Part shown: one piece after another, positions 22,303 to 56,622 of the stretch | How positions within the stretch are numbered: position 1 is the stretch's first letter | How the letters are laid out: each line of letters starts with the position of its first letter | IMG/VR virus record: IMGVR_UViG_3300021962_000036 | Span: 32,001 to 96,000 of that record | DNA from: a virus | Strand: one strand, 5' to 3' | DNA length: 64,000 bases | Notes under the pieces: generated by a model | Seen by the model: only the letters and a program-made list of their open reading frames with translations | The model's database searches: none | Told to the model about the DNA's origin: nothing | Position numbers and translations under genes: made by a program

Positions 22303-25300
22303 ATGGCAGAGAATATAACATTTGATTTTAATCAAGGTATACCTGATCAAGGCTTGATTGGTGAAACAACTTCACCATTAGAAACTCCTATTGATCCACC
22401 TAAAAAAGGCAAAGGTAGTTTTAGTAGTAGTTTTGATTCTCTTAATACTCAGAGTGTTAAAGATATATACTACAGCGACCAACCTAAAAGTATCTTAGAT
22501 AAATTAAACAGACCTGTTGGACCTAGCGGTGTTGCTTATGCACCAGAGTCTTTGACAGATCAATATATGTATCAAGAAGGATTTGAAGCAAAACACTTTA
22601 ATCCATTTGATACTACAAACTATCAAAAATTTGCTGATAAAGAAACATGGGGTTCTGCATTAGATAAAGGTTTTGATTCATTTGGTTATAAGTTTGGTAA
22701 TACTTTTTCAGATTACTGGAAAGGTTATGGACGTATGGCTGAAGCATTGTTTACTCTTGACTGGGACAAAATGAAACCAGATGAGACCACAATGATGGAA
22801 ACATACTATCAAGACCAGTTAGACATGAAGAAAAACTTTGTGTTTGAACAACCTCAAAATGAGGATAGTATCTTTGGTAAAAGAACAATGTCTGAGTTTA
22901 TTGGTAATGCTGGTTTTGCATTAGGAACATTTGCAGGACTTGGTATTGAAATTGCAGCTGATATTGCTATTACTGCTTTAACAGGAGGTGCAGGTGCTGA
23001 AACATTTGCATTAACTGCTGCTAATCAGGCTGCAAGAACTGCTGCAAGACAAGCTACAAAAGGAGGACTTAGAACTTTTGGTAGAGATGTATTACAAGGT
23101 TTTGGTAAACTTGGTGCTAAAAGTGTAGACGAACTTGCTGTATTAAACAAAATAGATGAAGCTGCAACAATAGCTGGAGCATCAGCATCACCATTAAGAA
23201 GTACAGTTGCACAAACATTTGAAGCATTTAATTATAGTTGGCTTAAAACTTTAAAGTCTAAATCATTTAGTGAATTTGGAGAAAACCTTTTAAAAGGTAC
23301 TCCATTACTTGGTACAGGAATTAGATATGGAGAAAGAGTTGCTGCAGCTGCCAAAGGTGGTGCATCAGCTGGTCAACTAGTTGGACTAGGTTTACAGGGA
23401 GTAAGACGTGTTGGTCAAGAAATGAACATGGCAGCTACTGAAGCAAGTTTTGAAGCAGTAACATCTTATGGTGATACTCTTGACAAAATGGTTCAGCAGT
23501 ACAAGATTGATAATGAAGGTGGTGTTCCAACAGCAGAAGAATTTGAAAAAATGAGAGGACTTGCAATGAAAGCAAGTTCATCTAACTTTAATACTAACAT
23601 GGCAGTATTACTTGCAACAAACCAATTACAATTTGGTACATTGTTTAGTAAATTCTTGCCAGCAAACATGTTAGCTAATGACGTTGCTGAGCAAATTCTA
23701 AGAGTAGAAGGAAAAGCAGCAGCTGCTAAACTTTACAAAAAAGGATTTACTGGAACTTATGGTGTATTAGGTCAAGTTGCAAAAGACTTTGGTAAAAAAG
23801 AAGCAGCATATCAATTTGGAAAAGCATTCTTTAAAGATGCCCTAAAGTTTGAAATTGCAGAAGGTCTTCAAGAAAACGTACAAGAAACAACTGCTGCAGG
23901 ATGGAGAGACTACTATGCTGGTCAAATGAATGGTACAAAGTATTCTTTATCACAAGCATTTGGAAAAGGAGCAGAAGAACAATTTACAAAACAAGGTTTA
24001 AAGACATTCTTAATGGGTGCTTTAACAGGTTCTGTAATCAGACTCCCAACAGCTGTTGCATCACGTTCTTTAGATGCTGCAAATAAAGCTGTTATCAGTA
24101 ATCAATATAAAAATGATCCAACGTCAAATCCTATTGTAAAAGCTGAAAAGCAATTAGATGAGGACTTGGCACAAATGAACTCATTGTTTAAACAAGCTCA
24201 TGAGGGTAAGTTTGAACAAAAAGTATTTAACTTTAATGCACAAATGAATGCTGCTCAAGAAGTAGCAGAAGGCGCAGCGCAGGGTTCAAGATATGATTTT
24301 GAAAATGGTAAAGATAACTCATTGTTATCTGCTGTAGCAAGTGCAAAACGTACACACTCAATTGACATGCTTTACAAAGCTGTAAAGGATATGGGTGTAG
24401 AAATGACTGCTGAAGATTTTGAAAAATCATTTGGTTACAAATTAGAAAACACAAAATATGCTACAGCTCAAGACTTTTCTGAATCTGTAGCTAGAGATAT
24501 TAAAAAGTATTCTGATACTATTGATAATGTAACAAGTCACGTTAAGAATAAATTAGCCAATCCAATGGCTTATTCTGCAGGTAGTAGAGGTAAATTTGTT
24601 ACAAGTTTAACAAGACAAGCACAAGAAGATGCTATTCAGGTAATTGCATTGAATAGTGTTAAAGGTGAAATGGCTGCAAATCGTGCTAAACAAGTTGCAA
24701 GTGAAATACTAGCTATGCCTAACATGGGCATTTCTGCAGATTTTGCATTAAGAACTTTGACAAATGCAGGATCAGTTGACGCTGAAGTAGGTAATATTGT
24801 TGCAGAACTTAAGATTTTAAATACAAACATGCAGGCAGAAGGTCTTGAACCTGACGCAAAGAAAGCATTGGCTGAACAGATTGCAAATAAACAAGAAGAA
24901 CTTGCATTAGTTAACAAATGGAAAACATTCTGGGACACTAGAAAAAATGTAATAGGGAAAGACTCTGAAGGCAATGATATTGCAGAAGATGAATCTGACT
25001 TGTTTGTAGGCCAAAAGTATAGAGGAAAACTTGAAACTCAAGATGAAAATGGTGACTTTATTTTATCAGAAGAGGAACAGGACTTATTTAGTATAGACCA
25101 TCCTGAAGTTATAAACACATTCAGAAAGTTAATGTCTATTAAAAATAAACAAGCTGGTAACAATACTGAAATATCTGAACAAACACTAAGAGATTCTTTT
25201 GAAAAGGTTTATGACTACATGAGATTAGACCAAGACACTAAAGACTATATGAGGTCTGTAGATGTGTTAATGAATCCTGAAAATTTCCAAAGAGCATTAG

Positions 25301-26739
25301 CTAGAATGGCTGATGGTAAGTTTAAACATAAGTTAATCAATTATGTAGATACAGTATCAGCGCGTTATTCAGTCGCTGCTATGTCTGCTGCAGTAGAACT
25401 TGGATTAAATCAACAAGAGTACATAAATCTATTAGCTGATATTGGAACTGCTGTAACGTCAAGTGAAGCATACAATAACATTCTTACTTTGGCAGTAGAT
25501 CCAAATGTTGGTATTGAAAACGCAGAGTATGCTCAAAAATTATCAGAGCAGATAAATGAAACCATTAAAACTGCAGTTAAAGAAGGTATTGCAAAATACA
25601 AGTCTGATGGCATATCTGATTTGTCAGTAGAAGAATTAGATGAAATTATTGCAGCTGGTACAATAGATGATGCAAGTGTTAGAAAGTTAGTTATTCTTGA
25701 CAAGTTAGTAAAGAATCAACCTTTACTTCCTAATGAACAAAAGGTTTATGATTTGTTTAAAGAAGATTTTGACAAAGAAGCAGAAGCACAGAAAGCTGCA
25801 CAACCTGTTGCGCAAGAACCTATTATTCCTGTAAATCAAGAAGAGTTGCCTGAAATTGGCCCTGATGGTGAGTTAGTTGATAGAGTTCCTGTAAATGGTG
25901 GTGATCAAGTAGAGGAAGAAGCACCTGTTACATTTGTAGATGAAAATGGTGAAGTTGCAGAAGAACCTGCACCTATTGAAACAGAAGTAGAAACTTTAAC
26001 TCCAGTAGAACCAGCTCAAACACAAACAACAACTGAGGAGGGTGTTGAAGGTGTTGGTGCTCAAGATGCGTCTAGCATGCTTGCTGGACTACTTGGTATT
26101 GAACCTGTAGAGAATGAAGAACCATTTGTTGTTGAAGGTACTACAGAGTCAGGATTTGATGTTGTAGACAAAAGCAATACTCCAGTAACAAATGAGAAGT
26201 TTGAAACAGAAGATAAAGCTCAAGAACTTTCTGACAGTTTAAATGCTACAAGATTGAACTTAGAGTTTGCTAAACAATTTATATCTCCAATGTTAGAAGA
26301 TCTTTCTGACAATGGTAAAATTGTAGAGATGCATGATCGTGCGATGAAATCAATGAAAAGATTTAACAGCATGAACAAGACAAACTTTGAAACTCTTGAA
26401 GAATATTACAAGACTCCAAAAGGTAAAGAGTTGTTAAATGGTATTAGAGATTCTGTCATTTCAGGTCAACCTGTTAAGTATGGTAAACCTAAAGCAATTG
26501 TTGTTACAACAAATGATGAGAATCAACCAACATTATTTGATACAACAACATCACCAGCAACTTCTGCAAGTTTAACTCTTGAAAGTTTACAAGCATTACA
26601 CAGTAAAATCCAAGGTTCAATTTCTACACCAGAAGTACAACAAATATCAGAAAAAAATAGTAAATTTGTAGAGGGAGGAATTGTCACAGAAGAATCAATT
26701 TTAGATGAGTTGAGGAAGATAACTGACTGTTTCTCTTAA
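22303..26739 (+). CDS. Large ejection protein with Gly/Ala-rich membrane-type helices
   Basis: GNAGFALGTFAGLGIEIAADIAITALTGGAG and FLMGALTG segments, EGLQENVQ motif, acidic linker; first gene of the giant triplet. Confidence 0.65.
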   Translation: MAENITFDFNQGIPDQGLIGETTSPLETPIDPPKKGKGSFSSSFDSLNTQSVKDIYYSDQPKSILDKLNRPVGPSGVAYAPESLTDQYMYQEGFEAKHFNPFDTTNYQKFADKETWGSALDKGFDSFGYKFGNTFSDYWKGYGRMAEALFTLDWDKMKPDETTMMETYYQDQLDMKKNFVFEQPQNEDSIFGKRTMSEFIGNAGFALGTFAGLGIEIAADIAITALTGGAGAETFALTAANQAARTAARQATKGGLRTFGRDVLQGFGKLGAKSVDELAVLNKIDEAATIAGASASPLRSTVAQTFEAFNYSWLKTLKSKSFSEFGENLLKGTPLLGTGIRYGERVAAAAKGGASAGQLVGLGLQGVRRVGQEMNMAATEASFEAVTSYGDTLDKMVQQYKIDNEGGVPTAEEFEKMRGLAMKASSSNFNTNMAVLLATNQLQFGTLFSKFLPANMLANDVAEQILRVEGKAAAAKLYKKGFTGTYGVLGQVAKDFGKKEAAYQFGKAFFKDALKFEIAEGLQENVQETTAAGWRDYYAGQMNGTKYSLSQAFGKGAEEQFTKQGLKTFLMGALTGSVIRLPTAVASRSLDAANKAVISNQYKNDPTSNPIVKAEKQLDEDLAQMNSLFKQAHEGKFEQKVFNFNAQMNAAQEVAEGAAQGSRYDFENGKDNSLLSAVASAKRTHSIDMLYKAVKDMGVEMTAEDFEKSFGYKLENTKYATAQDFSESVARDIKKYSDTIDNVTSHVKNKLANPMAYSAGSRGKFVTSLTRQAQEDAIQVIALNSVKGEMAANRAKQVASEILAMPNMGISADFALRTLTNAGSVDAEVGNIVAELKILNTNMQAEGLEPDAKKALAEQIANKQEELALVNKWKTFWDTRKNVIGKDSEGNDIAEDESDLFVGQKYRGKLETQDENGDFILSEEEQDLFSIDHPEVINTFRKLMSIKNKQAGNNTEISEQTLRDSFEKVYDYMRLDQDTKDYMRSVDVLMNPENFQRALARMADGKFKHKLINYVDTVSARYSVAAMSAAVELGLNQQEYINLLADIGTAVTSSEAYNNILTLAVDPNVGIENAEYAQKLSEQINETIKTAVKEGIAKYKSDGISDLSVEELDEIIAAGTIDDASVRKLVILDKLVKNQPLLPNEQKVYDLFKEDFDKEAEAQKAAQPVAQEPIIPVNQEELPEIGPDGELVDRVPVNGGDQVEEEAPVTFVDENGEVAEEPAPIETEVETLTPVEPAQTQTTTEEGVEGVGAQDASSMLAGLLGIEPVENEEPFVVEGTTESGFDVVDKSNTPVTNEKFETEDKAQELSDSLNATRLNLEFAKQFISPMLEDLSDNGKIVEMHDRAMKSMKRFNSMNKTNFETLEEYYKTPKGKELLNGIRDSVISGQPVKYGKPKAIVVTTNDENQPTLFDTTTSPATSASLTLESLQALHSKIQGSISTPEVQQISEKNSKFVEGGIVTEESILDELRKITDCFS

Positions 26740-26767
26740 TCTTCGTAAAATCAAAGAATATAAAGGT

Positions 26768-29700
26768 ATGGCATGTCAAATACAAACTGACAAGTACACT
26801 TCAGTTGTACTTAACTTAATTAAATTAGACCCTTCAGTATATAGTAATTTTGATAACGCTTCAAAGTTTATACTTGGCAGTGCATTGACACCTGAGCAAA
26901 AGATGATGTCATTGCATAACATGGCATATATCTACAAGGGCCTGGCTGGTATTGATAATAAATTTTACAATGCTGGAAATGCTGAAGGTATCATTAGTGC
27001 TGTTGTATTAATGGATGATCCATCAAAGTATGTGTCAAGTGTTAGTGAAATATTAGGTGTCAAGAAACCTTCAGCTTTAAAAGTTGAGAGTATTTCTAAA
27101 GCAATTGATAAGCTATCTTCTAAGAAGAACATCACACGTCAAGATTTAATTTCTTCTGAAGGTATACTTACATCTGTAAAAAACTATTTCAGTGTTACAG
27201 TATTTCCTACTAACGAAGAAAGAGAGCAATTACTAAATGAATTTTCTACTGCAATTAAAACTGCAATTACAGAACATGATTCACCTCAAGCTCACAAAGA
27301 CTTCTTAATCAAGCAAGTAGATGAAGCAATAAATTCTTTAAGAAAATCTTCTAGTTTTATTCCATTGTCAGATATTGCTAATCTAGCAGATTTGAACAAT
27401 GTATTGATTACTTTGACAAATGGTCAAATGGTTGAGGGCGTTAGACAAGATGAGCAATTTAAAATTATTACAAGTGATGGTTCATTACAAACAGTAGAAG
27501 CATCACAGATTCTTACAGCAAAAGATGCACGTGTTGCAGATAACTCAAGAAGTAATGCTGGAGAACAAGTATTTCAAGAACACACTTTACTTTCTAGTTT
27601 TTCAATTAAAGCTGTTGATTCAGCGGATCAATTTGAATTAGAAAAGAAATTGGCTAACATGAAAAATCCACAAGCTGGTATTAAAATTCATGCAGTCAAG
27701 TTAAGCGATGTAGCAGATAGAAGAGTAGAACGTATACAAGAAGCTGCAAAACAAAATCCTAAGTATTCATCTCTAGAGAATAGAGAACATGAGACTTTTG
27801 AAAATGCTACACAAATAAAAGCATTACAATCATCTTCTTCTAAGAAGATTATGACTGTGTCTAGACCTAAAGCAAGTGAACAACAGTTTGTTCTTGTTGG
27901 TGAGATTATTGGAAGTGGTGAGAAATTTTATATGTATTCTTCTGACAACTTTGTTTTTGTTAGTAGTGATAACACAACAGAAAGAGTTGACTTTACAAAT
28001 CCAGAACATATGGAATTGGTTAAGTCTCTTGCTGTAAAGAACACAAAAGAAGGAAACAAATCATTGTCTGATACAGATATCATTGCAATGTCTGAGTCTA
28101 ATAAATTATTCCAAGGTTTTAAAGCAAGTCTTTCTGACAAGGTTGCAAGTTTATCTGATAACTCACTTGATGTTACTAGTGAATTTTTTAATGCTTATGA
28201 AGCTAGTTCAAAAAGAACAGACATAAACAAAAAACAATTATTAAAGAATGAGATTGAAGTAGATACTACTTTATCTAAACCTTTGACAGTTGTTACAATG
28301 GTAGATGGAGTTATTGCTAATACAGAAGTAGTTAGTGTACCATTCATTTATACAAAAGTAAAAAATGACCCATACATCTTAAAACCATTCTTGGCAAAAG
28401 GGCAACTTATTCAATTAGAAAATGGTGCTACTGTTTCTCAAGAAGTATACGCAAGTGATGTGTTAGGTATTAATCCTTCTGAGATACAAGGTAAAATTGT
28501 AAAACCAGAGCATGGTAATCAACTAAACATATTGTTACGTTTCAACAATGATGGTACAATTGGATATAGAAGTATTGCTCCTGTATTACAAATGTCTCAG
28601 CAAGTAGAGTTTGCAAAATTCATTGTATCATTGGCTAATATTCTTCAGACATCTGCAAACAGAACTGGTGATATTAGAAACTTTGATAGAAACTCATATG
28701 GTTTTAAGTTTTACAATAAAGCAAAACAAGGACCTAATGATGACAATAGAGCACCATTGCGTGTAAACTTTGCAACATCAAAAGCAGGACAGTTACAAAT
28801 AGAAATAAGACCAATGGACAAACAAGGTCCTTATGGTTTTATTGCTGAAACAGAAAACAAGAATCAATTTAACTTTCCAGTTAATGAAGCTATTATAACA
28901 AACTTAGCTAAAGCATTACTAGGAAAGGGTAATTTAGTTAATCAAGTAAAAGAAGCATATCCTGCTTTGAAGACTTTGGATTTAACAAATACAAAAGACT
29001 TAGTTACATTCTATGAGCAGGTAAACAAATTAAGTAATTCAGAAACTGCACTTCCTGTTTTAAAACAGTTAAGTGATAGTATTGAGAAAGCTCAAAAAGA
29101 ATTTGCTGAATACTTGGTTAATAATATTATAAACAAACTTGCTGAAAGAACAACAATGTTCCCAGAGTTTGTAGAACAATTAAAGAAAGACTTTACATTC
29201 AATGGTGTGTACAGACCAGAATTGTTAGTGGCTGACACTGATGAATCAGGTGTATTATATCCTAGAATAGAATATGCACAACCTGCAGAACGCAAAGAGT
29301 ATCGTGAAGATCTTGCAAACTTTAAAATATTACAAGCAAACAGTAAGAAGTTTACAGTAGTACCAAAAGCTGCAACTCCACAAGTTACAAAATCACAAGA
29401 AGTATTAACTCCAATTGTAGAAAGTGAAAAGATTCACAAACAAGAACCTTTAAATACAATTGAAGATGACACTACAGATATTCCTGATATTGAAGTATTC
29501 TCTTTAGTTGGGGATGAGAATGTTATTGTAGAGACAGATGAACAAAGATTAGCAGCATCTGAGTGGTTGTCACAATCTTTACCACAATTTGAAATTGATA
29601 ATGGTTCTCTAGCAGACATTATTGATCTTACTAAATTAGACGGTACTGTTCTTGGTGCATTTAAAGATAGAGTTATCTATTTAAATAATGCATTAAAAGG

Positions 29701-35700: not shown

Positions 35701-38089
35701 AAATGCTGAAGATCAACGTGTTATAGCATTAATTGGTAACATTCTTGGTATGTTTGCGGATGGTGCTAAGAAACCTATTCCTGCAGCATTGCAAATGAAT
35801 GAGGTAAATGCTGGTGTTACACTTGCTATGATTGGTGTAGGTATGTCACCTGAGTTTGCTATTGGATTTAACTTTATACCTGAGATTAAAAAAGCAGTAC
35901 AAAGTGTTCAGTCTACAAAATATGCTATCAGTGAGTCTATGGCTACTGCATATAAATTCTTAAACAATGAGGTAGCTGAACAAATAAAATTGTTAGCTGC
36001 TGATAACAAAGATGCATTGAACAACTTAATCAGTTCAGGTTTAATATCTCCAAGATCAAATCCTTATAACATTATTATCAATAAAGACAAACTCTTAATT
36101 GATTTTAAAGCAAGAGCATTAGATCCAAAAGCAGTATTAAGTAATACATTATCTTCTACAGATATTGGTTACAAAGTATCTGCAATTGTAGAATCTAAGT
36201 CTGAAGAAAATGCTGCAGAAAAAATATTGAACAGAGTTGAACTATCTGAGGTTGAACAAAAAATGATTTTGTTACAGCTTTATAAAGAACAGGCTCAACA
36301 AACATTTGACATTAAACGCGCAGGTTCTCTTATTGACTTATTCAAAAAACTTAATCCATCTTTTGTAAACTTTGATAAGTTACTAACTAACGTTAGAAAT
36401 TTACAAGCAGGTGAAAGTATCTTTACAAGAGAAACAAGTGATAAAATATTTGAAGGCAATCAAGTATGGCCACAATTGTTAGAAGCTATTGAAGACTTAA
36501 ATGAGCAATCATCTAAAATATTCTTAGAAAGAACAGAGTTCTTTGCTCCAATTAAAAAAGCATTTGAAAGTGTATTTACTGATCAAGCTAATATTGCTAA
36601 GATTATCACAAGCTTTGTAGCATTAAGAAAATACCAAATGTCTATGCCAGGTAGCAGGATTACAGGTACAGCAATGGATGCTTTGATACAAGAAGATGAT
36701 CAAAACTTAATACAATCATTTACTCCTGAGTTCTGGTTTACAAATGATTTAGCAGGAGAATTAGAGGATATGCAAAAAAGATATCCTCAGAATAAGTTCT
36801 TGCAATTACTAAGACCTGATATATCTGATAACAAAGTATTCTTGAAGTCTGGTGGTTATCTAAATGAAAGAAGTATTAAGATGATCAACAAATCTAAGAT
36901 TTCAGGTAAGTTGGCAGACGAGGTATCAGATGACGCAGATTTCTTATTGAGAAATGAGAATATGTTTATGAAGAAGTTATTCTATCATGAGCTTGCTAAA
37001 ACTGGTATGCAATACAAATCAGGTTCTTTCTTACAGTATATGAATCCTGAAATGCAATTAGATTTATCTGGTTACATTGAAACATTCATTTCTAAACTTG
37101 AAGAAACAAAGGGTGACCGTTACAAGTTAATTAGTGCTATTCAAGAATTTTTAGGTAAAGAAGTTACTGAGAAAGAAGTTTATGATTTGTTTGATGAACT
37201 GTTTGTTCAAATGGCTCAAGCTGCAAGTAAAGAAGTTGGTAATACCAAAATTAAAATTGCAGATCCACTATCATTGAACAACATGTCAAACATAATGACA
37301 TCACTTCAGTTTGAAGAAGGGACCAAAGATAGAGAACGCAGAGCTGTTGCTAGAGAAGTAATAGCTAGAGTTACAGGTCAACTTACAGAAGGTGATGCTA
37401 TGCGTGTAAGATTGGTTGACACAATAGATAAAAAACCAGTAGAAATATTGGATATTAACATGGATGTACCTAAAGATGTTGCACAAGCATCTAAGAAAAC
37501 TGTAGATGAGATTGGCAAGAAGTTGGGTATTAGATTTAATCCTATTGATGAGGTATATCAATTTCCATTAATGATTTCTATTGGTAGAAGTAAATACTTA
37601 CTGCAAGGTGTTGATGATGAGATTGGTAATAATAGTTTTGGTAAAACAGTTATCAATTCTATTGTAGGGAAGGGAGAATACATCAGTAAAGGTATGTCTG
37701 CTAGATATGCATTGATTCCATCACAACTTACAGCTGGAACATTAAGTCCTATTGGGTTTACAAAAGAGAACACTAAGAAATATATGGATTATGTTTCTGG
37801 CAAGGAAAAAATGGAGTATATTGCACCAGAGATTAAAAAGTCTGAAGAATCAGTAGCAAAACTACCAGAATCTACAGAAAAACAAACTCAAGAATCTGTA
37901 ACTAAATCTCAGTTGCAAATTGATATGGACAACTTAAACTTAACTGATGAGGTTGTTAATTCTTTATATTCAGAAAGTAGTAAGAGAATGGCTCCAGATG
38001 TATTTAAAGCTGCAGCGCAAGGTATGATTGCTAACCTAAGAGCAACAATGTCAAATGAACAAATTATAGATAAAATTAAGTGCTTATAA
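26768..38089 (+). CDS. Virion-packaged DNA-dependent RNA polymerase (crAss/phi14:2 gp66-like) with a zincin-like domain
   Basis: GSDFDVD catalytic loop (DFDVD at 34700-34714), preceded by RIPT and an upstream DGQS; HEAFH at 29717-29731 and EEILA; 3773 aa. Confidence 0.85.
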   Translation: MACQIQTDKYTSVVLNLIKLDPSVYSNFDNASKFILGSALTPEQKMMSLHNMAYIYKGLAGIDNKFYNAGNAEGIISAVVLMDDPSKYVSSVSEILGVKKPSALKVESISKAIDKLSSKKNITRQDLISSEGILTSVKNYFSVTVFPTNEEREQLLNEFSTAIKTAITEHDSPQAHKDFLIKQVDEAINSLRKSSSFIPLSDIANLADLNNVLITLTNGQMVEGVRQDEQFKIITSDGSLQTVEASQILTAKDARVADNSRSNAGEQVFQEHTLLSSFSIKAVDSADQFELEKKLANMKNPQAGIKIHAVKLSDVADRRVERIQEAAKQNPKYSSLENREHETFENATQIKALQSSSSKKIMTVSRPKASEQQFVLVGEIIGSGEKFYMYSSDNFVFVSSDNTTERVDFTNPEHMELVKSLAVKNTKEGNKSLSDTDIIAMSESNKLFQGFKASLSDKVASLSDNSLDVTSEFFNAYEASSKRTDINKKQLLKNEIEVDTTLSKPLTVVTMVDGVIANTEVVSVPFIYTKVKNDPYILKPFLAKGQLIQLENGATVSQEVYASDVLGINPSEIQGKIVKPEHGNQLNILLRFNNDGTIGYRSIAPVLQMSQQVEFAKFIVSLANILQTSANRTGDIRNFDRNSYGFKFYNKAKQGPNDDNRAPLRVNFATSKAGQLQIEIRPMDKQGPYGFIAETENKNQFNFPVNEAIITNLAKALLGKGNLVNQVKEAYPALKTLDLTNTKDLVTFYEQVNKLSNSETALPVLKQLSDSIEKAQKEFAEYLVNNIINKLAERTTMFPEFVEQLKKDFTFNGVYRPELLVADTDESGVLYPRIEYAQPAERKEYREDLANFKILQANSKKFTVVPKAATPQVTKSQEVLTPIVESEKIHKQEPLNTIEDDTTDIPDIEVFSLVGDENVIVETDEQRLAASEWLSQSLPQFEIDNGSLADIIDLTKLDGTVLGAFKDRVIYLNNALKGQGVIYHEAFHGVFRFLMSSEERQNLINAVSDNKKHAGKFTESALKEFARQRNYVYNKEEMTRLQAEEILADGFQNYMLKNTKPKGILGQFMAMLKKLLAMFASKGAYIDNVYGKIKNGQYRNEVISSGIHEGQIAYELIPGLKQVVSTPAGVGQRTSVLSKADQDQLVNMLAGYVIEDGQKEAFSTKFDRIAQLVLDYEYNMDVLLRTNSELFKSNPGLKEKVIKTMGPLYANYRFMLGARAKGEALYDLNTTDNPSYDNRFNKNNSVKVYGEEEAQDNHLGQVSYEMLKKQVKEQVDKVNSILDGTEKTSDKDVVEKEIAGANENTIANDDAEDEQEVSESSDFDASFNEINALESLPRQIRKFLAVVRYDQVHPTLGIKVPRMIAGEQLFGSLIKVSAEMDPRNIIEHIKIVAEQQIEDGYFNSGNDLMAVYDKLSRYTKMDESGTPQSNKQLYNMIVDVLHKTEIDYVMIDVKTSQTFLEGDEVLTDTRNFTLVDKVHSQDVNNKKRNLVTSVIEMYKENKNNPEYLAAVNKLLQLSRTIKTSSFILSDVTSQNAKLESITTELQKAFEDVGMKFPKSLIRMSVMAIDQVDNKATLNITGTPLTHYNNHSKFISEKKYLEKDFFTDVINIFEKISVNKISSNDFAVLLDEKNSKSDTVNRFNSIIKKAAEYIVKYDPNELPSTVRNAEGKPIYRYVSYTPATIIAQSIRTKGLLETLKEDPFYADFLESFYADNAMLGDLLKGLDTQKAREMKLFMDNFKVSLFGGVSQTIGEKQKEGKSFKNIDEKSLYITNILTFLQRTTEASFKQELDENGKVKDVATKIQTYVRSFSQLEASQTNFLVTALYNQFADSKGLVMNADKRLKIVDTLEAVVKQEYNRIAKEWARSGENKTNFDNADSNKIINKYNGELDKNDKSKAVTDSSSLRAYKFNKIADFFSANPELESNETKTGLADFAKEGIAFEDLDQEVKDALLDTLENYAKEQLNKHATKLIDLGILQKAIQKQRNSKGDVITRGVGGPEAEAITYYTSTLIPSVLKVDSAPAVSIDGLYQKTKENYNEAGFKIDSSTDLRGLVADAFFNNWMNALQFNEIIDGDIAMNVKDATDYFKRNKKLLAGGSTMKEGYHKVAFLNTIEGYINESYPQYGPYYSKQEVIEDESIKSDAVREKILKEYGSSMYEIFDGQSVSSLMHQIDMHESMGRLSPEILHSLIAKHYRELSETEIRVMEAGKVVNNPKKTVTAARNSYHKQSENYIDRNDVSVLTPKAGQKVNDAYEALHGLYMDIYNLRGQRQDLVLAGELGALTDIDNAIIKNVEEIHTYFKPLPHREILHNILNAMEYHQVDQLMDTTASKNATMLPVDYATESERIAGKDSYINLAMSSLSVDNKFKFLQVETSGVKDKAKFSVQSKALIAADLINLAEIARVSGLDITDSEQKAIDNIASVLENYQSTLKEIGVSNLANLKTILRKDGDFEVGKIFTLIRTSLEEQGAPTATLKLFDVDASGKPVHSANLPGVRNMLEYYFFSQYSKNVTDEKGSGFKNIHISSFGYNVLEDENGNVITTEQYRKNPTAFGIVRSRPLGVTIEEVNGVKTYFVETIMPKPLFKSAAHERFYMENLTKMFGVRIPTEDKRSMIAIKVVDFIDSSNLNGVIVPHFVHLLAGSDFDVDALYGQTFAHYFDLSGNPKLYGEYQDGKNTNLNKYAEFVQYMSKDADLKALIKKETKGLLENSSYEITEEALSILYHSGFDESDYNGAMNFAELKESYDNLVIDIEELMEIRDEAKEEFVDAIRRNEVNPSDRRALQDRLDLGKEVGEYNEELGQKRDQRNQYGREVSRAKRFTFAGLKVAATLQAFTKMGLPTSAQAFEANPNYALSVRPIFQNKNLQAKLDIVSNEAVHKFLYIHERSSTQRFEDILESFGIDIKDFSTKYNMYTTDGVVSTKVGNAMNKDGIGITANINKFLALASQYGLELKPENVIWAFKNADLDQVNLNKFGTLNAEDQRVIALIGNILGMFADGAKKPIPAALQMNEVNAGVTLAMIGVGMSPEFAIGFNFIPEIKKAVQSVQSTKYAISESMATAYKFLNNEVAEQIKLLAADNKDALNNLISSGLISPRSNPYNIIINKDKLLIDFKARALDPKAVLSNTLSSTDIGYKVSAIVESKSEENAAEKILNRVELSEVEQKMILLQLYKEQAQQTFDIKRAGSLIDLFKKLNPSFVNFDKLLTNVRNLQAGESIFTRETSDKIFEGNQVWPQLLEAIEDLNEQSSKIFLERTEFFAPIKKAFESVFTDQANIAKIITSFVALRKYQMSMPGSRITGTAMDALIQEDDQNLIQSFTPEFWFTNDLAGELEDMQKRYPQNKFLQLLRPDISDNKVFLKSGGYLNERSIKMINKSKISGKLADEVSDDADFLLRNENMFMKKLFYHELAKTGMQYKSGSFLQYMNPEMQLDLSGYIETFISKLEETKGDRYKLISAIQEFLGKEVTEKEVYDLFDELFVQMAQAASKEVGNTKIKIADPLSLNNMSNIMTSLQFEEGTKDRERRAVAREVIARVTGQLTEGDAMRVRLVDTIDKKPVEILDINMDVPKDVAQASKKTVDEIGKKLGIRFNPIDEVYQFPLMISIGRSKYLLQGVDDEIGNNSFGKTVINSIVGKGEYISKGMSARYALIPSQLTAGTLSPIGFTKENTKKYMDYVSGKEKMEYIAPEIKKSEESVAKLPESTEKQTQESVTKSQLQIDMDNLNLTDEVVNSLYSESSKRMAPDVFKAAAQGMIANLRATMSNEQIIDKIKCL

Positions 38090-38090
38090 T

Positions 38091-41000
38091 ATGAACACAT
38101 GTCCAAATCCAAATAGTCCTGAGTGGAAAGAACTAGTAGCAAAACTAGGTGAAGGTCAGGCTATGACTGCTTATACTTTAAATGGAAACAACACTCCTTC
38201 TGTTGAAGAAGCTGAAGCATTATTAAGCAAACTTAAGGTTGAAGAAAAAGATGAACAAGTATCAAGATCTTCAGATGAGTTTAAACTACAACGTGCTGTA
38301 CAACAAAGAACTTCTTTAGAAAAACTTAAGTTCCAGGCTAATCCTAAACAGAAAGCTACAATTGATCAGCTTATCACAATGAATGATAACTATCAAGAGT
38401 TCTTAAGAAAGAACATAGAACTTGCAAAGAATGGACAACCTATTATAAAAACAGTAAGTGTTTCTAACTTTATTGGTTCTTCTGACTTTAATGTAGATCC
38501 TAAAGAGTATGAGGCGTTCAAATTATTTGGAACATTCATGCATGAGGTGTTAGAGTTGGGGCAACTTAAGTCTTTGGATACAGGAAAATCTATTTTTGAA
38601 ATTGTTGATGAAGACTTCTTTAAAGAAGCTTATGATAACTACACAAAAAAGAATCCTTTCTTTATTGAAAACTTGGATGAGTCAACCATGTTTGATATGG
38701 CAAAGCGTTTAGCAATGCATGTATCTATACACAACGACAGAGGATACATGATTCTTCCAGAGATTACAGTAACAGGTACTACCAGAACAGGGACTACAGT
38801 TATTGGACGTTTGGATTTAATGTTGGTAGATACTCAAGGACGCGTAAGTGTATTTGACTTTAAGACTAAGAAAGTAAAACGTCTTGTAGAGTATGATCCA
38901 ATTGGTCAACCAGTAATGAATGAAGATTTAGCATTTGTTGATCTTGCAGAAAAATCATTTCCTGTTTCAAATAAAGAAGGAACATCTCCTGCGTTTAGAG
39001 GTCAGGGTAGAACAGCATATGATACTTGGACATTGCAATTAAAGGTGTATGAAAATATCTTGCAGCAAAGTGGTCTTGAGGTTAACGCTCAATCTATTGT
39101 TGCTCTTATGTATCAAACAGATGATAACAAGAAGTTTGTTGGAGCTACTGTCCATGTATTTGATGAAGATAACTATTACAACTATGCAGGTTCAGCAGAT
39201 ATTCCAAATAATAATGGTCACTGGGTTGCAGATCCTACAAGAGGCGCAGACTTAATTAAAAGTCTAAGAGATGTTGTAGATAAAGAAATACCAACATCTG
39301 ATGTAGAGGAAGAAGAAAAAGCAAAAAAGGAAGCAAAACTATTGGAGTTTGAACCTACTTCTAAAAATGATGAAACATTAAGAAATAGGTTAAAGCAAAT
39401 TGTAGATGCAGAGTTAGATGAAATTGGCAAACAAATTAAAGAACTTGATTCTAACCAAAGTAATCCTGCACTTAGAGAAATATTAGCAACTAGACGTAAA
39501 ACATTAAATGATTTTAATGCTATTATGTCAAGACCTCAATCTGAAGAAGATGTAAAGTATTCAGTAAACTTAGCATTAGCTATTGAATCTGTAGGTGTTG
39601 ATTTGGAAACTTTATCAAGATTGTCAGATGAGGCAATTGTAAATTTTAAAATAAACAAAGATTCTTATACTTCAAAAGAAGGTGCACAAATTCTTGAAGC
39701 TTACAAAAAGTCTAAATCATTAGACATTATTGTAGACATTATCAAAGAAATTGTAGATGATGCTAGAAGTAATCCTGATAATAACATTACAGTTGACAGT
39801 GAAATAATGAAACGTCTTTCTGAGATGGAGTCTTCATTAGCTAGAGTACAATCAAACTTTGCAAAGGTTGCAATGCACAACAGCATTCAGGTATTAAAAA
39901 CTCCTGGAAGCAAAGTATTTGCAGAAGTAAATGCTGACATAAAAGAGGCATTACAAGCTAAGTTAATCAGTTTAAAAAAACAACTTGAAAATTTAAAAGC
40001 TGGAAAAGCTAATAGTATATTTCAGTCTATTAAATCTTCTGCTCTTTCTTTTATGAGTAAAGAGTACAAACAAAAACTTGCAGAGAAACTAGAAAAGGAT
40101 GGCAACAATGATACTCCAGGTTTAATGTTAGAGATTGAAAAGCTTGAAAAACAAATACTTACAGTTGAAGCTGTCATTGATGGTGGATTAGATTTTGATG
40201 ACGCTGCTTTAGAAAGATATATTTCTGGTGTAACAACGTCAACGTCAAATCTTTATTTAGGTTCTAACACAGCATTCAATAGTAATAGTTGGTTACAAAA
40301 CTTAATGTTAGATAAAGCAATTGCATCTGCTTCAAATAGTAGTGTTGAAATTGCAGCGTTTACAATGATGTTAAAAAATGCTGAAGGATTGGCTAGAATG
40401 GAAATTCAAAACAACCTTGCTGTGTTAAAGTTTGATCAGAAGAGAGACTCTCTTTTAAAGAGAATGTCAGTTGAACAACTTAATGAAAGAGTATCTGAGT
40501 GGAGAAAAACTACAAGTATAGATAAAGAAGGCAATCCTGTAGAGAAGAACATTCTTTATATGACCAAACCTTTTGGTGAAGAGTATGAAAATACATACAG
40601 ATCATTTAGTGCTACAATCAGACAGTTAAATAAAGAAATTTATGAAGCTAAGATTAAGTACAATGAAAACATTAAAACTGCAGAAGCACAACAATATAAA
40701 GATGCTTACCTAGCAAAGCAATCAGAAAGAGAAGCAGAAAATACCAAGTATATTAAATGGATGATGGACAATGCTCATTTACCTTTTAATGAGAAGTTTT
40801 ATGAACTGCAACTTGGAATGCCTCATGATATTAAAGATAAGTTACAAGAGAAGTATCTTGAAATTGAAACAATAACCTTCCAGGTAGGTAAAGGTAATGA
40901 AGTGCTACTTGAGGATCATGACTTTGAACGTTTGCAAGAGTTGGAGATTGAGATTAAAAAACTTAGAGTAGAAGCAAAAAAACTTAACCCAAAGTATGCA

Positions 41001-43988
41001 GATATGATAGATGAGTTTAACTCACTATTTGAATTTGATACTAACCAAGCATTCTTTGATAGAATGCAGTTCAATGCAAAATCTAGATATGAATCTGAGC
41101 ATCCAGAACTATGGGAGAAATGGAAAAAAGATAATACTGTTAATAGACCAACTTCTGAGTGGTATGAAGAACTTAGTGCTTTATATGAAGCAAGAGCTGC
41201 TATATTTGGTTCAGATCCACAGATTGCTGACCTTATGCAAAAGCGTAGAGACATACTTTCTCCTTACAAAATTGGTGGAAGAATTAAACCTCAGTATTTA
41301 AGTCAGTCTGAAATTGATTCTTTAAGTGAGATTGATGCAGAAATTGAAAGCATCATTGAACAAAATTCTAAATCTGGAGGCACGCTTACTGCTGATGAGA
41401 AAAAAGCATCAAGAGAAATAACAGATGCTATTAAAAGAATATCATCACTTCAATTGAGTGAATCTTATAATGATACTTTTGAATCAAAAGTAAAATCATT
41501 GTACGCACATCAAAGATCAATCATTGATGCTGAAAATAAACTTGCTACTGCTAGAACAGCAGGAGATAAGAAAGCAATTGAAGATGCAGAAGAAGCATTG
41601 ATTTTTGAGGAAACTCAATATGGAATGCAAGAGGCTGAATTTGAGACATGGTATAACATGCACCATGAAAACAAATATCAAAGTATTCTTAGTGGGTATG
41701 ACATTAGAAATAATAGAGTACCAAAAAACTTTAACTTTGAAAAACTACCTGCTGCAACTGTAAAGGATCAGTACATGGAAACTGTACCTCATCCTAAATA
41801 TAAAATCAAACGCTTAAAAGAATCTTCTAAGAATCCTGAATTCTTGAAGTCACCTGACGGTGTTCCAATGCCAAAAGCAATTAGTAAAAACAAGGATGGC
41901 AATTATATAGTTACTCCTGGTTATGAGAACTCTCCTAACATTAATCCTAAGTATAAAGAGTTAATGAAAGACCAAGAGTTATTTAGTTTTTATAATGACA
42001 CAATGAAAATGTTCTTTGAACTTCAAATGAAAACTGAAGGACGTAAGATTGGTTATCAAGTTCCAGGATTTGCTGCATCAACTGTTGAGAATATTTCTAG
42101 TAAAGGAATGTTAAGTTCTATTGATGCTGAATGGCAAAAGTTTGTTGACAAAAGTGTAAAAGTATATGGTTCACAAGATGCTGTTGAAAATGTATTTGGT
42201 GATCTTGGTTCTAAGATTAGACATAGATTTACAGATCAATTACCTGAAAACTTGCAGTCAAGAGATGCAATTGGATCAATTATAAAGTACACAACAGAAG
42301 CTCATTACAATATTGCAATGCAAAGTGTTGCTCCTCAAGCAGATATGTACATTGAGCATTTAGAGTTTATGGCTGAACAATTACAAAAAAATATTCAGCA
42401 GGATAAACCTATGTTTCTTAGAGATGAAGCAACAGGTAAGGAAGTTAAAGTAGATATGTCTAAGCGTTTAGGTGAACTTAAAAATGTAATTAGCATTCTT
42501 CAGTTTGAACGCAGAAAATTCTTATACGGTCAAACAGAAAGTGGTAATGACTTAAACAGAAAGCTTACCAAAAGAATGAACTCTGTATTTGCTTATACAA
42601 GTTTTATCAGAATTGGTTTTGATGTTGCCAACCAGGCAAAGAACTACATCTCTGGAAACGTGCAAGCATTTATTGCTGCAGGTGGATTAGCAGGTGATAA
42701 GTATACACAAGCTGATTACATGTGGGCTAAATCTAAAGTATATGGATACAATGGATTCTTGCATAACTATTTTGCTGATTGGGGTAAAGTAAGTGATGTT
42801 AGTGATTCTACAATGTTATATCGCTTTTTTAATCCTGCACAAAAAGACTTTTTAAAATATGTTTCTGAAATTACAGGTACAAAAGGGCGTAGACTAAAAG
42901 GTAAAGCGTTGAATGTCCAAGAGTTAGGATACATGTTACAAGATAAAGGTGATACTGAAATTGCAGTTACAGTAATGTATGCTGTCATGAATCACCACAG
43001 ATTTAGAGTTATTGATAGTTTTGACAGCCAAGGTAATCCTGTTTACAAGAAAGATGCTAATGGTGAAGATGTAACAGTACCAGTTCATGAAATCTACATG
43101 AAAGATTCAGAAGGACGTATGGTTAAAAGAAGTGATGTAGAGTACACTCAAGATGATGAAAACAGAATAAGAAACATTATCTATTCTGAAATGAGGCGTG
43201 CTCAGGGTAACTACGCTAAAGCTGACCAAACAAAGTTTGAAGAAAACATGATTGGTAAAATGGTATTCTTCTTTAGAAAATACCTTGTGCCTCAGTTACT
43301 TAATAGATTTGGTTACTTAAGACCAAACTGGGAAGGTTCAGAAGCAGCAATGGGATACTGGAGTGCAGTAGCTACAGCATGGAAAGCATATGGTCCTCAA
43401 GAAGTTGGTAAACATTTATTACTAGGAAGTAAAAGAATGTCTAAAAACAATAAGAATCAGATGGGTAGCTTTTTGACAAGAAAGGTTAACCAGGCAAGAA
43501 GAGATGCAATTGCAATGTTAGTATTGACTGTGTTAGGTATCTTGGCTAAGAGTTATGTTAATAAGAAAGATGATGATGATGAGGAACTAAGTTTCTTAGA
43601 AGGTAACGCCATTAGGGTTCTATGGGGCGTAAAAGGTGAAACTGTATCAATGTTCCCTGTTGGTGGAGGTTCTGAAGAATACATCAGAAACTTTACAACT
43701 GTATCATCTTATACTAGAGAGTTAAATGCTCTTAAGAAGTTTGGTTCACACGCAATTAGTTATGGTATGGCTATGACAATAAATGGTGGTGAGGAGCCAG
43801 ATCCAGATAATGACAGCGAACTTTACCAAGATATCTGGAAAGATGCATTCTATGGACGTAAGTATGGAGCATACCAAAAAGGTGATGCTAAAATAGGAAA
43901 AGACCTTATGGATCTTACAGGTATTAAAAACTTTAGAGATCTAGTCAACCCTAATTACAGAATAGATCAGATGAAAGGCAAGCAGTAA
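38091..43988 (+). CDS. Giant ejection protein with an N-terminal PD-(D/E)xK nuclease-like domain
   Basis: GTFMHEVLE..E..GRLDLMLVD..VFDFKT..QLKVY RecB-family pattern; long coiled coils; hydrophobic segment near the C-terminus. Confidence 0.7.
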   Translation: MNTCPNPNSPEWKELVAKLGEGQAMTAYTLNGNNTPSVEEAEALLSKLKVEEKDEQVSRSSDEFKLQRAVQQRTSLEKLKFQANPKQKATIDQLITMNDNYQEFLRKNIELAKNGQPIIKTVSVSNFIGSSDFNVDPKEYEAFKLFGTFMHEVLELGQLKSLDTGKSIFEIVDEDFFKEAYDNYTKKNPFFIENLDESTMFDMAKRLAMHVSIHNDRGYMILPEITVTGTTRTGTTVIGRLDLMLVDTQGRVSVFDFKTKKVKRLVEYDPIGQPVMNEDLAFVDLAEKSFPVSNKEGTSPAFRGQGRTAYDTWTLQLKVYENILQQSGLEVNAQSIVALMYQTDDNKKFVGATVHVFDEDNYYNYAGSADIPNNNGHWVADPTRGADLIKSLRDVVDKEIPTSDVEEEEKAKKEAKLLEFEPTSKNDETLRNRLKQIVDAELDEIGKQIKELDSNQSNPALREILATRRKTLNDFNAIMSRPQSEEDVKYSVNLALAIESVGVDLETLSRLSDEAIVNFKINKDSYTSKEGAQILEAYKKSKSLDIIVDIIKEIVDDARSNPDNNITVDSEIMKRLSEMESSLARVQSNFAKVAMHNSIQVLKTPGSKVFAEVNADIKEALQAKLISLKKQLENLKAGKANSIFQSIKSSALSFMSKEYKQKLAEKLEKDGNNDTPGLMLEIEKLEKQILTVEAVIDGGLDFDDAALERYISGVTTSTSNLYLGSNTAFNSNSWLQNLMLDKAIASASNSSVEIAAFTMMLKNAEGLARMEIQNNLAVLKFDQKRDSLLKRMSVEQLNERVSEWRKTTSIDKEGNPVEKNILYMTKPFGEEYENTYRSFSATIRQLNKEIYEAKIKYNENIKTAEAQQYKDAYLAKQSEREAENTKYIKWMMDNAHLPFNEKFYELQLGMPHDIKDKLQEKYLEIETITFQVGKGNEVLLEDHDFERLQELEIEIKKLRVEAKKLNPKYADMIDEFNSLFEFDTNQAFFDRMQFNAKSRYESEHPELWEKWKKDNTVNRPTSEWYEELSALYEARAAIFGSDPQIADLMQKRRDILSPYKIGGRIKPQYLSQSEIDSLSEIDAEIESIIEQNSKSGGTLTADEKKASREITDAIKRISSLQLSESYNDTFESKVKSLYAHQRSIIDAENKLATARTAGDKKAIEDAEEALIFEETQYGMQEAEFETWYNMHHENKYQSILSGYDIRNNRVPKNFNFEKLPAATVKDQYMETVPHPKYKIKRLKESSKNPEFLKSPDGVPMPKAISKNKDGNYIVTPGYENSPNINPKYKELMKDQELFSFYNDTMKMFFELQMKTEGRKIGYQVPGFAASTVENISSKGMLSSIDAEWQKFVDKSVKVYGSQDAVENVFGDLGSKIRHRFTDQLPENLQSRDAIGSIIKYTTEAHYNIAMQSVAPQADMYIEHLEFMAEQLQKNIQQDKPMFLRDEATGKEVKVDMSKRLGELKNVISILQFERRKFLYGQTESGNDLNRKLTKRMNSVFAYTSFIRIGFDVANQAKNYISGNVQAFIAAGGLAGDKYTQADYMWAKSKVYGYNGFLHNYFADWGKVSDVSDSTMLYRFFNPAQKDFLKYVSEITGTKGRRLKGKALNVQELGYMLQDKGDTEIAVTVMYAVMNHHRFRVIDSFDSQGNPVYKKDANGEDVTVPVHEIYMKDSEGRMVKRSDVEYTQDDENRIRNIIYSEMRRAQGNYAKADQTKFEENMIGKMVFFFRKYLVPQLLNRFGYLRPNWEGSEAAMGYWSAVATAWKAYGPQEVGKHLLLGSKRMSKNNKNQMGSFLTRKVNQARRDAIAMLVLTVLGILAKSYVNKKDDDDEELSFLEGNAIRVLWGVKGETVSMFPVGGGSEEYIRNFTTVSSYTRELNALKKFGSHAISYGMAMTINGGEEPDPDNDSELYQDIWKDAFYGRKYGAYQKGDAKIGKDLMDLTGIKNFRDLVNPNYRIDQMKGKQ

Positions 43989-56103: not shown

Positions 56104-56622
56104 ATGGCACTAAAAATCACATCTGAAATTGGTACAGATCAAGGAATTACCAGTGAAGCGTATGTTCGTATTGTAAATTACAATATCAACAAAACTGGTA
56201 GCGCAAACTTTGCGTTACAAATTTTTAATTCAGAAGCTGAGGCAACTGCTTTATCAGCAGGATCTCCACTTGTAGGATCTTTTCAAAATGGCATTGCTAA
56301 AAATGTTCAAATTGGAGATAACTTTAGCATTGGTTTGACAAAAGAAGTAACTGAGACTATCACTGTACAACGTAGTATCCCAACAGAAGTTGAGGTTACT
56401 GAAGAAGTTATTGTACCTGGAGTAGATAGTTCTGAGTCAACTATTGAAACTATTACAAAAACTGTTATTCAATCTGTATTGACAGATGTTCAAGAAGAAA
56501 GAGTAGTAGTAGTACCTGATTTGTCTTCTTTAGCAGAAGTTGATATCTTTACATTTGCTTATGGTAAATTAAAAGAAAAATTAGAAGCTGCTTTTGGAGA
56601 AGGAAACGTTATTGATTGCTAA
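56104..56622 (+). CDS. Hypothetical protein, tail-fibre associated
   Basis: 172-aa ORF with an acidic Val/Thr/Glu-rich central segment. Confidence 0.65.
   Translation: MALKITSEIGTDQGITSEAYVRIVNYNINKTGSANFALQIFNSEAEATALSAGSPLVGSFQNGIAKNVQIGDNFSIGLTKEVTETITVQRSIPTEVEVTEEVIVPGVDSSESTIETITKTVIQSVLTDVQEERVVVVPDLSSLAEVDIFTFAYGKLKEKLEAAFGEGNVIDC

Follow-up and report, generated by a model that had tools for sequence, protein, structure and literature searches.

The 64,000-nucleotide stretch analysed here (hereafter the window) comprises positions 32,001 to 96,000 of the IMG/VR virus record IMGVR_UViG_3300021962_000036 and contains three consecutive giant open reading frames (ORFs), whose products we call protein A (1478 aa), the RNA polymerase (RNAP; 3773 aa) and protein C (1965 aa). 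Translation of the window reveals four cysteines in their combined 7216 residues, and all four lie at termini that face one another across the two gene junctions. The locus raises the question of whether proteins encoded by separate genes are joined end to end through these residues, and by what chemistry. We find that the facing cysteines are conserved and paired across gene junctions in relatives, and that they follow the protein ends when the genes are split or fused. From this sequence pattern we consider it rather probable that the terminal cysteines form head-to-tail disulfides between the proteins in the virion.

Four cysteines at facing termini

Each of the four residues was confirmed by translation where the first-pass annotation had placed it (codons beginning at 26728 in A, 26774 and 38081 in RNAP, and 38100 in C; Table 1). 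The outer ends of the set, that is, the N-terminus of A and the C-terminus of C, are free of cysteine, as had been claimed together with the absence of cysteine from the 874-aa protein encoded upstream, and translation bears out both statements. The genome to which the window belongs is a 119,946-bp virus record with an estimated completeness of 99%, and its 100 other ORFs have a cysteine content of 1.28%, compared with 0.055% in the block. In that background a cysteine occurs within the first 8 residues of 5/100 ORFs and within the last 5 residues of 6/100. All four junction-facing termini of the window (4/4) carry one, which at background rates would arise by chance with a probability of ~9e-6, a figure that leaves aside the absence of cysteine from the other ~7200 residues of the block.

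Identity of the module

In tblastn searches RNAP matches only crAss-like phages (59 records, at the gene annotated as "RNAP catalytic subunit", best E 2e-13), among them crAss002 and Carjivirus (E 1e-11 to 2e-13), and blastp connects it to crAss001 gp50 (E 4e-12) and p-crAss gp44 (E 6e-17). Its DFDVD motif, at aa 2645, falls within one local alignment with the DFDID motif (aa 1361) of phi14:2 g066, the aspartates of which are essential according to the text of the preprint 10.1101/2020.03.07.982082. It conforms to the crAss-type catalytic motif DFDxD (x being I or V) and is invariant in the RNAP alignment (A1). Protein C matches phi14:2 g065 (E 5e-8) and crAss001 gp49 (E 1e-4), which makes a good case for homology. 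Protein A shows weak similarity to phi14:2 g067 (E 0.001) and crAss001 gp47 (E 0.033), and its status as their counterpart rests mostly on position. Upstream, at 5991-7091, lies a match to the Pfam family CrAss_Ring_1 (E 4.3e-9), so that the module adjoins crassvirus tail genes, and downstream follow tail-fibre PHROGs and Peptidase_S74.

The similarities of RNAP and C, the DFDVD motif and the upstream CrAss_Ring_1 match together identify the block, by sequence comparison, as the virion RNA-polymerase module of a distant environmental crAss-like phage, in which A, RNAP and C correspond to phi14:2 g067, g066 and g065. The distance from known Crassvirales modules is very large, and the polymerase is larger. 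In fact, RNAP matches no PHROG or Pfam family, the giant proteins match no PHROG, megablast against phages returns nothing, and PDB sequence searches with the 1200 aa of the window RNAP that surround the motif and with a four-sequence profile of A1 did not match the phi14:2 polymerase; the homology of RNAP consequently rests on chains of BLAST matches. Some of its homologues (within P0078-P0149) carry inserted domains (RNase H PF00075, PF08719, PF25176, PF18760 and PF13532). In phi14:2 and crAss001 the module proteins have been detected in the virion by mass spectrometry (texts of PMC10172136 and preprint 10.1101/2020.03.07.982082), and by homology A, RNAP and C of the window phage would likewise be packaged in the capsid and injected.

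Conservation and pairing in the window clade

Scans of viral contigs returned 36 loci from 32 contigs, with polymerase identities of 39-95%. Counted over 33 contigs including the window, and with the repeat-contig loci L005, L024, L029 and L036 omitted, cysteines stand on both facing termini at 64/64 junctions between block genes. They occupy the last to third-last residue on the C-terminal side and residues 3-5 on the N-terminal side of intergenic spacers of 1 to 32 nt, and the terminal sites use TGT 80 times and TGC 22 times. At the free ends of the same clade (3 N-termini of A and 18 C-termini of C) a cysteine within 12 residues is found in 0/21 cases.

Homologues in the protein database reveal the same constraint. 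Those of A contain exactly one cysteine, at -1 to -3, in 58/59 cases, the exception being a record named "partial" that has none. Among homologues of RNAP, 97/98 carry a cysteine at most 4 residues from the C-terminus; one of these, P0134, is truncated in the catalytic region, so its cysteine does not mark a true terminus and 96 are real. The N-terminal cysteine is present at residue 3-7 in 84/98, and of the 14 homologues that lack it 8 are shorter, N-truncated calls, the others being P0152-P0156 and P0157, which are taken up below. Protein C has a cysteine in its first 8 residues in 102/105 homologues and near its C-terminus in 0/105; the three exceptions have no cysteine at all, two of them being ~200 aa short at the N-terminus and the third the most distant match, P0262. 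A profile of the C head (first 200 aa; M..CPN...) was also searched against 1.84 billion representatives. Among the 129 matches whose alignment starts at profile position <=6, the cysteine is kept in 127/127 N-terminal heads, and in two short calls it is internal, one of these having a Met inside the chain immediately before it. Several RNAP sub-lineages share one internal cysteine near aa 2620-2670, and P0134, which is cut there, ends ...TYFVECIMP.

Terminal cysteines in reference crassviruses

The reference set comprised 20 genomes (5 Steigviridae, 8 Intestiviridae and 7 Suoliviridae). Cysteines are present on both sides of 24/24 junctions, or 22/24 if the annotated starts are used, and are absent from the 12-14 residues of 20/20 chain starts and 19/19 complete chain ends. 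The first-pass annotation had named, as outcomes that would refute the idea, terminal cysteines that are not conserved in relatives or not paired across junctions, and neither outcome is seen: the cysteines are kept down to ~25% identity in three families of the International Committee on Taxonomy of Viruses and in the window clade, and pairing holds at 64/64 window-clade and 24/24 reference junctions, two of the latter after moving a start.

The families reach this pattern with different gene arrangements. Among the Steigviridae, phi14:2 has in g067 only C1797, the last residue, in g066 only C3 and C2179 of 2180, and in g065 only C3; the three proteins add up to 5398 aa (~0.6 MDa). In crAss001, gp47 has only C2339 of 2341, gp50 has C5, C1334 and C2404 of 2412, and gp49 only C5. 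In DAC15, _61 has C2220 of 2222, _63 has three internal cysteines besides C5 and its last residue, C2265, and _62 has C4 and C619. The remaining two, cr108_1 and cr116_1, also fit the rule. In the Intestiviridae the A-like protein ends with a cysteine at -1 or -2 and the RNAP-C fusion starts MSC, MAC or MANNC and has a C-terminus without cysteine. In the Suoliviridae, some of which recode TAG, the N-terminus is free, the C-terminal cysteine lies between -1 and -11, and the protein that follows begins with M(x1-4)C. In cr10_1 (NC_055875; L049:19965 onward) this following protein is a long unannotated C-type ORF, starting MKIICPNL, which shares sequence with the 3' end of gp32 and extends as far as the linear record does.

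Upstream of the chain, the cargo proteins of crAss001 have two internal cysteines (gp45) or none (gp46). The Intestiviridae protein in the upstream cargo position has a single cysteine 2-11 residues from its C-terminus, mostly in a ...[RK]CGG... tail, and the protein that follows it has no N-terminal cysteine (Table 1).

Splits, fusions and interrupted genes

In part of the window clade the last ~60 aa of RNAP are carried on a separate protein of 193-195 aa (L016-L020 and L034), 326 aa (L026) or 665 aa (L025). The large part then terminates in ...NNC, ...TDC or ...LDC. The small protein begins with MKC, MPC or MAKSC and finishes with ...KCL, and the head of C is the same as elsewhere. At the position homologous to the split, no cysteine is found in the unsplit window RNAP. 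These translations indicate that the cysteines track protein ends, not genes, and that new splits gain a pair.

Fusions give the reciprocal picture. Where RNAP and C are fused (Intestiviridae), the cysteines of the A tail and the RNAP head remain and the C-terminus of the fusion is free; where A and RNAP are fused (Suoliviridae), those of the RNAP tail and the C head remain and the N-terminus is free. On these sequences, the cysteines left after either fusion are exactly the pairs of a chain that runs from A through RNAP to C. Had the pairing been between A and C, or of RNAP with itself, the cysteines left in the fusion families would be without a partner. The first-pass annotation had asked for a check on genomes whose genes are split or fused differently; there the cysteines follow, with pairs gained at splits and only the pairs of the chain left after fusions.

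The break points themselves are not homologous between families. Residues 933-1100 of the window RNAP match aa 2105-2292 of crAss001 gp47 (E 1.6e-9) and aa 1997-2101 of cr4_1 gp26, and yet the cysteines stand at whichever break exists. In cr4_1 there is a lone cysteine at 2180, near the expected end of the gp47 homology, from which nothing firm follows. Moreover, the gp47-type gene of crAss001, DAC15 and cr116_1 is encoded on the strand opposite to the RNAP gene and its product still ends with a lone cysteine, so a nucleotide signal where two genes meet does not account for the pattern.

Interrupted genes behave differently from split ones. In cr108_1 a group I intron (RF00028, 80 bits, E 8e-21) divides the RNAP gene within its catalytic motif (...AGSD / ...YDID...), and this pseudo-junction has no cysteine on either side, whereas the true junction has the pair (...NLCK / MANVCPN). 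In cr116_1 an intron with a 215-aa endonuclease-like ORF lies at the same place, with two partial RF00028 matches (E ~1e-6) below the gathering score; the upstream piece ends ...EIKMC, which we read as intron read-through, and this cysteine is ambiguous.

A further candidate, the removal of a pair by fusion in L028 and L031-L033, was dropped: the ~297-aa N-terminal extension of the 2232-aa C in these loci has no detectable similarity to the small tail ORF. In the same four loci DLDID replaces DFDxD, and the polymerase ends ...ETKC, without the KCL mini-domain.

Structure of the termini

AlphaFold2 (AF2), run on a 15-row alignment, folds the last 60 residues of RNAP into four short helices (predicted local distance difference test, pLDDT, 78-88) after a low-confidence stretch of ~40 residues. 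The tail cysteine (C199 of the 200 residues folded) directly follows a helix spanning 190-198. In protein C, residues 1-9 (MNTCPNPNS) are modelled as coil and a helix begins at residue 10. In these models the terminal cysteines of RNAP and C look accessible and exposed. The first-pass annotation had proposed that both C-terminal cysteines cap similar amphipathic helices. The AF2 model of the RNAP tail agrees with this as far as the helix before the cysteine goes; the tail of A was likened to it by eye only. A complex prediction for the last 81 aa of RNAP with the first 130 aa of C, also from 15-row alignments, scored 0.28 against a mark of 0.32, without controls, and we use it neither way.

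A proposed disulfide-linked chain

In the arrangement that we propose, the C-terminus of A would be disulfide-bonded to the N-terminus of RNAP, and the C-terminus of RNAP to the N-terminus of C. The reading derives from single cysteines that are gained and lost together on ends that must meet. We infer from it the bonds and their timing, together with travel as a single thread and release by reduction. The disulfides would form after assembly or release and would join the separately encoded A, RNAP and C into a single thread, linear and without branches, of ~7200 residues; other crassviruses achieve the equivalent at the same junctions by fusion through a peptide bond. Their location at the extreme termini would keep each joint thin enough for a narrow tail channel; in fact, the stubs that would project past it are in most cases 0-2 residues long at one terminus and 2-4 at its partner. 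Such a thread would fix co-packaging, as well as the order and the N-to-C polarity of ejection, in gene order, and thiol reductases of the host cytoplasm would then cut it into working subunits. The result would be a "polyprotein in trans" that can be taken apart by reduction and that would make ejection ordered.

Several published observations bear on this proposal. The article text of PMC10172136 describes inter-subunit disulfides in tail and portal-vertex proteins of crAss001 virions and states that passage through the tail requires partial unfolding of the cargo, and that of preprint 10.1101/2020.03.07.982082 notes that some crassviruses fuse the three module proteins. For N4-like phages, the text of PMC11445570 explains the suppression of cysteine in ejection proteins by their transit of the periplasm, an oxidising compartment. 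Next to ejected proteins that avoid cysteine altogether, the terminal cysteines retained by crassviruses stand out.

More tentatively, and with somewhat less than even confidence, we extend the proposal to the Crassvirales as a whole. Peptide bonds and terminal disulfides would there be interchangeable joins, a cysteine pair replacing each peptide bond that has been cut, and the cargo would form one thread of 0.6-0.8 MDa, pulled through N to C in fixed order and cut by thioredoxin-type reductases that would also switch the polymerase on. A search of the phage's own genome for thioredoxin and thiol oxidase (PF00085, PF04777) found none, the PF04777 part being uninformative in that its control matched nowhere. 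Small thioredoxin genes are annotated in the replication module of p-crAssphage, cr8_1, Rudgehvirus and cr108_1 (L038, L046, L047 and L055).

Conservation, pairing and the behaviour of split and fused genes, the sequence-level points on which the first-pass annotation had staked the idea, were all tested, and the idea survived. A number of points nevertheless weigh against it. The case for disulfides is drawn from sequence alone, and assembly in a reducing cytoplasm, together with the anoxic habitat of the gut crassviruses, leaves open when and whether the bonds form; the tail disulfides of crAss001 may, in our view, owe something to sample handling. Gut lineages contain internal cysteines, up to 15 in the polymerases of cr271_1 and cr8_1 and 13 in that of cr7_1, which could compete for pairing, and the earlier count of only four cysteines therefore describes the window clade, phi14:2 and a few others, not the whole order. 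Nor is the cysteine always at the extreme end (-9 in crAss001 gp50, -11 in cr10_1).

The N-terminal positions depend on start calls as well. For crAss002 gp33 and cr110_1, an N-terminal cysteine exists only when translation is taken to begin at an internal MSC, which lies 32 codons (gp33) or 14 codons (cr110_1) past the annotated start; we consider the annotated starts (L039:16278 for crAss002 gp33, L045:16050 for the cr110_1 RNAP) to be probably mis-called, because the internal MSC matches the MSC or MAC start of every other Intestiviridae polymerase. The distant RNAPs P0152-P0156 have a ~580-aa N-terminal extension and no N-terminal cysteine, and we read them as fusions with the upstream part, although only the extension is seen, without homology to A. 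In P0157, a distant A+RNAP fusion, the nearest cysteine lies 58 residues from the C-terminal end, and P0262, the most distant C homologue, has no cysteine anywhere; searches of viral and metagenome contigs returned no contig for either. Loss of the pair on fusion is shown in the Intestiviridae only in the sense that no terminal cysteine is left: a profile of the C head, used to place the ancestral RNAP/C junction, found no significant match inside the fusions. Finally, because of kinship among the database proteins, their counts reveal constraint and not independent events, and the reference sample covers three families, with the Crevaviridae and the epsilon and zeta groups lying outside it.

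Alternative explanations

The terminal cysteines might instead bond other partners, either as homodimers (A-A, C-C or RNAP-RNAP) or with cysteine-rich capsid, portal or tail proteins, and so anchor the cargo. Several copies of each cargo protein are thought to be packed in one crAss001 virion, the polymerase-associated proteins, at six copies apiece, being an example (text of PMC10172136), the structural proteins are cysteine-rich and disulfide-bonded (the crAss001 muzzle protein gp44 has 10 cysteines), and lone terminal cysteines without a facing partner do exist, in the ...RCGG... tails of the upstream Intestiviridae cargo and in the window ORF at 56104-56622. Bonding of this kind nonetheless leaves unexplained why the outer ends are bare (0/21 in the clade, 0/105 C-termini of C, none in 20 references), why two cysteines arise at once with each new split, and why, after a fusion, what remains is one C-terminal and one N-terminal cysteine of adjacent proteins; we regard it as improbable. 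A shade less credible still is a thiol-dependent step that leaves no stable link, such as recognition or processing of the termini when a protease or chaperone acts at the packaging stage, a redox switch that would hold the polymerase inactive until it has entered the cell, or ligation. The text of preprint 10.1101/2020.03.07.982082 reports that the phi14:2 RNAP crystal form, with 2166 residues modelled, is self-inhibited, with its mode of activation unknown, and that a neighbouring protein has a zincin protease domain. In the window clade, a similar short motif precedes both C-terminal cysteines as judged by eye (...SILDELRKITDCFS and ...EQIIDKIKCL). The flanks beyond the cysteine are, however, not conserved between families, which makes a shared recognition site unlikely; the N-terminal cysteine lies at residue 3-8 and not at 1, so ligation would need an extra cleavage; and no such step requires strict one-plus-one pairing.

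A metal ion held between the two termini, in the manner of the Rad50 zinc hook or the CD4-Lck zinc clasp, where thiolates of two chains share a metal, would likewise keep the proteins joined in a chain and could later let them go. Each terminus, however, offers one cysteine, with no conserved His or second cysteine adjacent to it (alignments A2 and A3, and the tails), and the number of cysteines rises by two per junction (2, 4, 6), which fits pairs and not a fixed four-ligand site. We hold such a clasp to be quite unlikely. Least credible of all, to the point of being nearly negligible, is chance or shared ancestry without function, in which the few cysteines of cysteine-poor proteins happened to survive at the termini. 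Ejected proteins are indeed generally poor in cysteine (N4 gp50, gp51 and gp52 have 0, T7 gp15 has 0, and T7 gp16 has 0 in its first 1135 aa). Against this, the cysteines are kept at <30% identity, across families and at non-homologous break points, both synonymous codons are in use, cysteines are regained at new splits, and terminal cysteines occur in 5-6% of background ORFs at a cysteine content of 1.28%.

Two modifications were set aside as judged by eye: lipidation, for which there is no signal peptide or lipobox and the position of the cysteine varies from 2 to 8, and CaaX-type prenylation, for which the spacing is wrong and the host is bacterial.

Comparison with known systems

The closest known systems are the other Crassvirales RNAP modules (phi14:2 gp67-gp66-gp65; crAss001 gp47, gp50 and gp49; p-crAssphage gp45-gp44), which share with the window a giant two-barrel RNAP with DxDxD, giant flanking proteins, two in number, a position downstream of tail genes, and the terminal-cysteine rule (20/20 references). 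The window RNAP differs from that of crAss001 in having its break points elsewhere.

The virion polymerase of N4 is of the T7-like single-subunit type. The N4-like Schitoviridae (N4 gp50, gp51 and gp52; DEV gp71-73) resemble the window in injecting a giant RNAP and companions through a short tail and in suppressing cysteine (text of PMC11445570), and no sequence relation was seen between the window proteins and N4-like ejection proteins. As stated in the first-pass annotation, the injected N4 polymerase is free of cysteine (gp50, 3500 aa), and so are gp51 and gp52; N4 thus lacks cysteine entirely, termini included, whereas the window proteins are depleted but retain four conserved terminal cysteines. 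The T7 (L058, NC_001604) protein gp14 has a single cysteine, at residue 2 (MCW...).

Beyond the phage polymerases, reducible joins between protein chains are known from other settings. In AB-type toxins, an interchain disulfide holds the translocated chain until the reducing cytosol is reached; the chains derive from one precursor and one of them forms the pore. Von Willebrand factor and mucins form concatemers through terminal disulfides, with identical subunits joined head-to-head and tail-to-tail via cysteine-rich domains. The arrangement proposed here would differ from all of these in joining three different gene products head-to-tail through single cysteines, and the likeness is one of analogy, not of family membership. 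The crAss001 tail and portal disulfides similarly join different proteins, but as rigid joints of ordered tail proteins; none is reported for the unresolved cargo in the article text of PMC10172136, the coverage of which here is exclusive of Extended Data Table 2.

Other features of the window

The coordinates of the module, its cysteine codons, its neighbours and the comparison loci are collected in Table 1. Elsewhere in the window, a 172-aa ORF at 56104-56622 (+) has as its sole cysteine the last residue (...GEGNVIDC) and belongs to no Pfam family. A 533-aa protein at 741-2342 (+) contains 37 cysteines and has thrombospondin type-1 repeats (TSP1_spondin, E 2.8e-36), an animal-type adhesive repeat found here in a phage structural region. 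Two more ORFs are rich in cysteine, at 2367-3149 (14 cysteines) and 54844-55773 (22 cysteines).

Table 1. Coordinates of the polymerase module, its terminal cysteine codons and neighbouring or comparison features (window positions unless a locus is named)
Feature	Position	Strand	Remarks
Upstream cargo-position protein	16195..19632	+	1145 aa; internal Cys 791 and 837; termini without Cys
Upstream cargo-position protein	19661..22285	+	874 aa; 0 Cys; outside the chain
Protein A, first chain member	22303..26739	+	1478 aa; positional counterpart of phi14:2 g067 and crAss001 gp47; sole Cys C1476
Cys codon TGT of A	26728..26730	+	third residue from the C-terminus, ...RKITDCFS
Virion RNA polymerase	26768..38089	+	3773 aa; crAss-type two-barrel RNAP; sole Cys C3 and C3772
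Cys codon TGT, RNAP residue 3 (MAC...)	26774..26776	+	
DFDVD catalytic metal-binding motif, RNAP aa 2645-2649	34700..34714	+	aligned with DFDID of phi14:2 g066
Conserved C-terminal helical mini-domain of RNAP (~60 aa), ending ...KIKCL	37907..38086	+	from alignment, AF2 model and homology to small ORFs of L017, L025 and L026
Cys codon TGC, RNAP penultimate residue (...KIKCL)	38081..38083	+	
Protein C, last chain member	38091..43988	+	1965 aa; counterpart of phi14:2 g065 and crAss001 gp49; sole Cys C4
Cys codon TGT, protein C residue 4 (MNTCPNPN...)	38100..38102	+	in coil before the first helix
PD-(D/E)XK nuclease domain, protein C aa 139-262	38505..38876	+	Pfam PF12705, E 1.6e-5, 25.4 bits (cut-off 22)
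Upstream single-Cys cargo proteins, Intestiviridae	L038:5189-7762; L039:5583-7256; L042:4788-7166; L047:5071-7344		p-crAss gp47 (L038); crAss002 gp30 (L039)
cr108_1 RNAP interruption, GSD/xDxD	L055:16371-16689 (NC_055878)		pieces annotated as separate hypothetical proteins
cr116_1 RNAP interruption, GSD/xDxD	L057:17016-17858 (NC_055882)		pieces annotated as separate hypothetical proteins

Significance

We found no description of terminal cysteines in crassvirus cargo in the literature text covered, which was article text and, for the phi14:2 polymerase, preprint text; the word "cysteine" is absent from the texts of PMC10172136 and preprint 10.1101/2020.03.07.982082, and Extended Data Tables 2 and 3 of the former (disulfides and mass-spectrometry coverage), which lie outside the text covered, could bear on this claim of novelty.

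Whatever the chemistry, the cysteine rule aids annotation. It marks true protein ends and mis-called starts (crAss002 gp33 and cr110_1), exposes the unannotated cr10_1 gene, and tells real splits from intron interruptions (cr108_1 and cr116_1). It is an acknowledged open question how crassviruses, the most abundant human gut phages, move protein on the megadalton scale through a narrow tail and which parts go first. One cysteine on each side of every junction offers a concrete hypothesis, testable in cultured phi14:2, crAss001 and DAC15. If true, it would mean that these phages build a cleavable polyprotein from separate genes, which to our knowledge is undescribed in virus biology.

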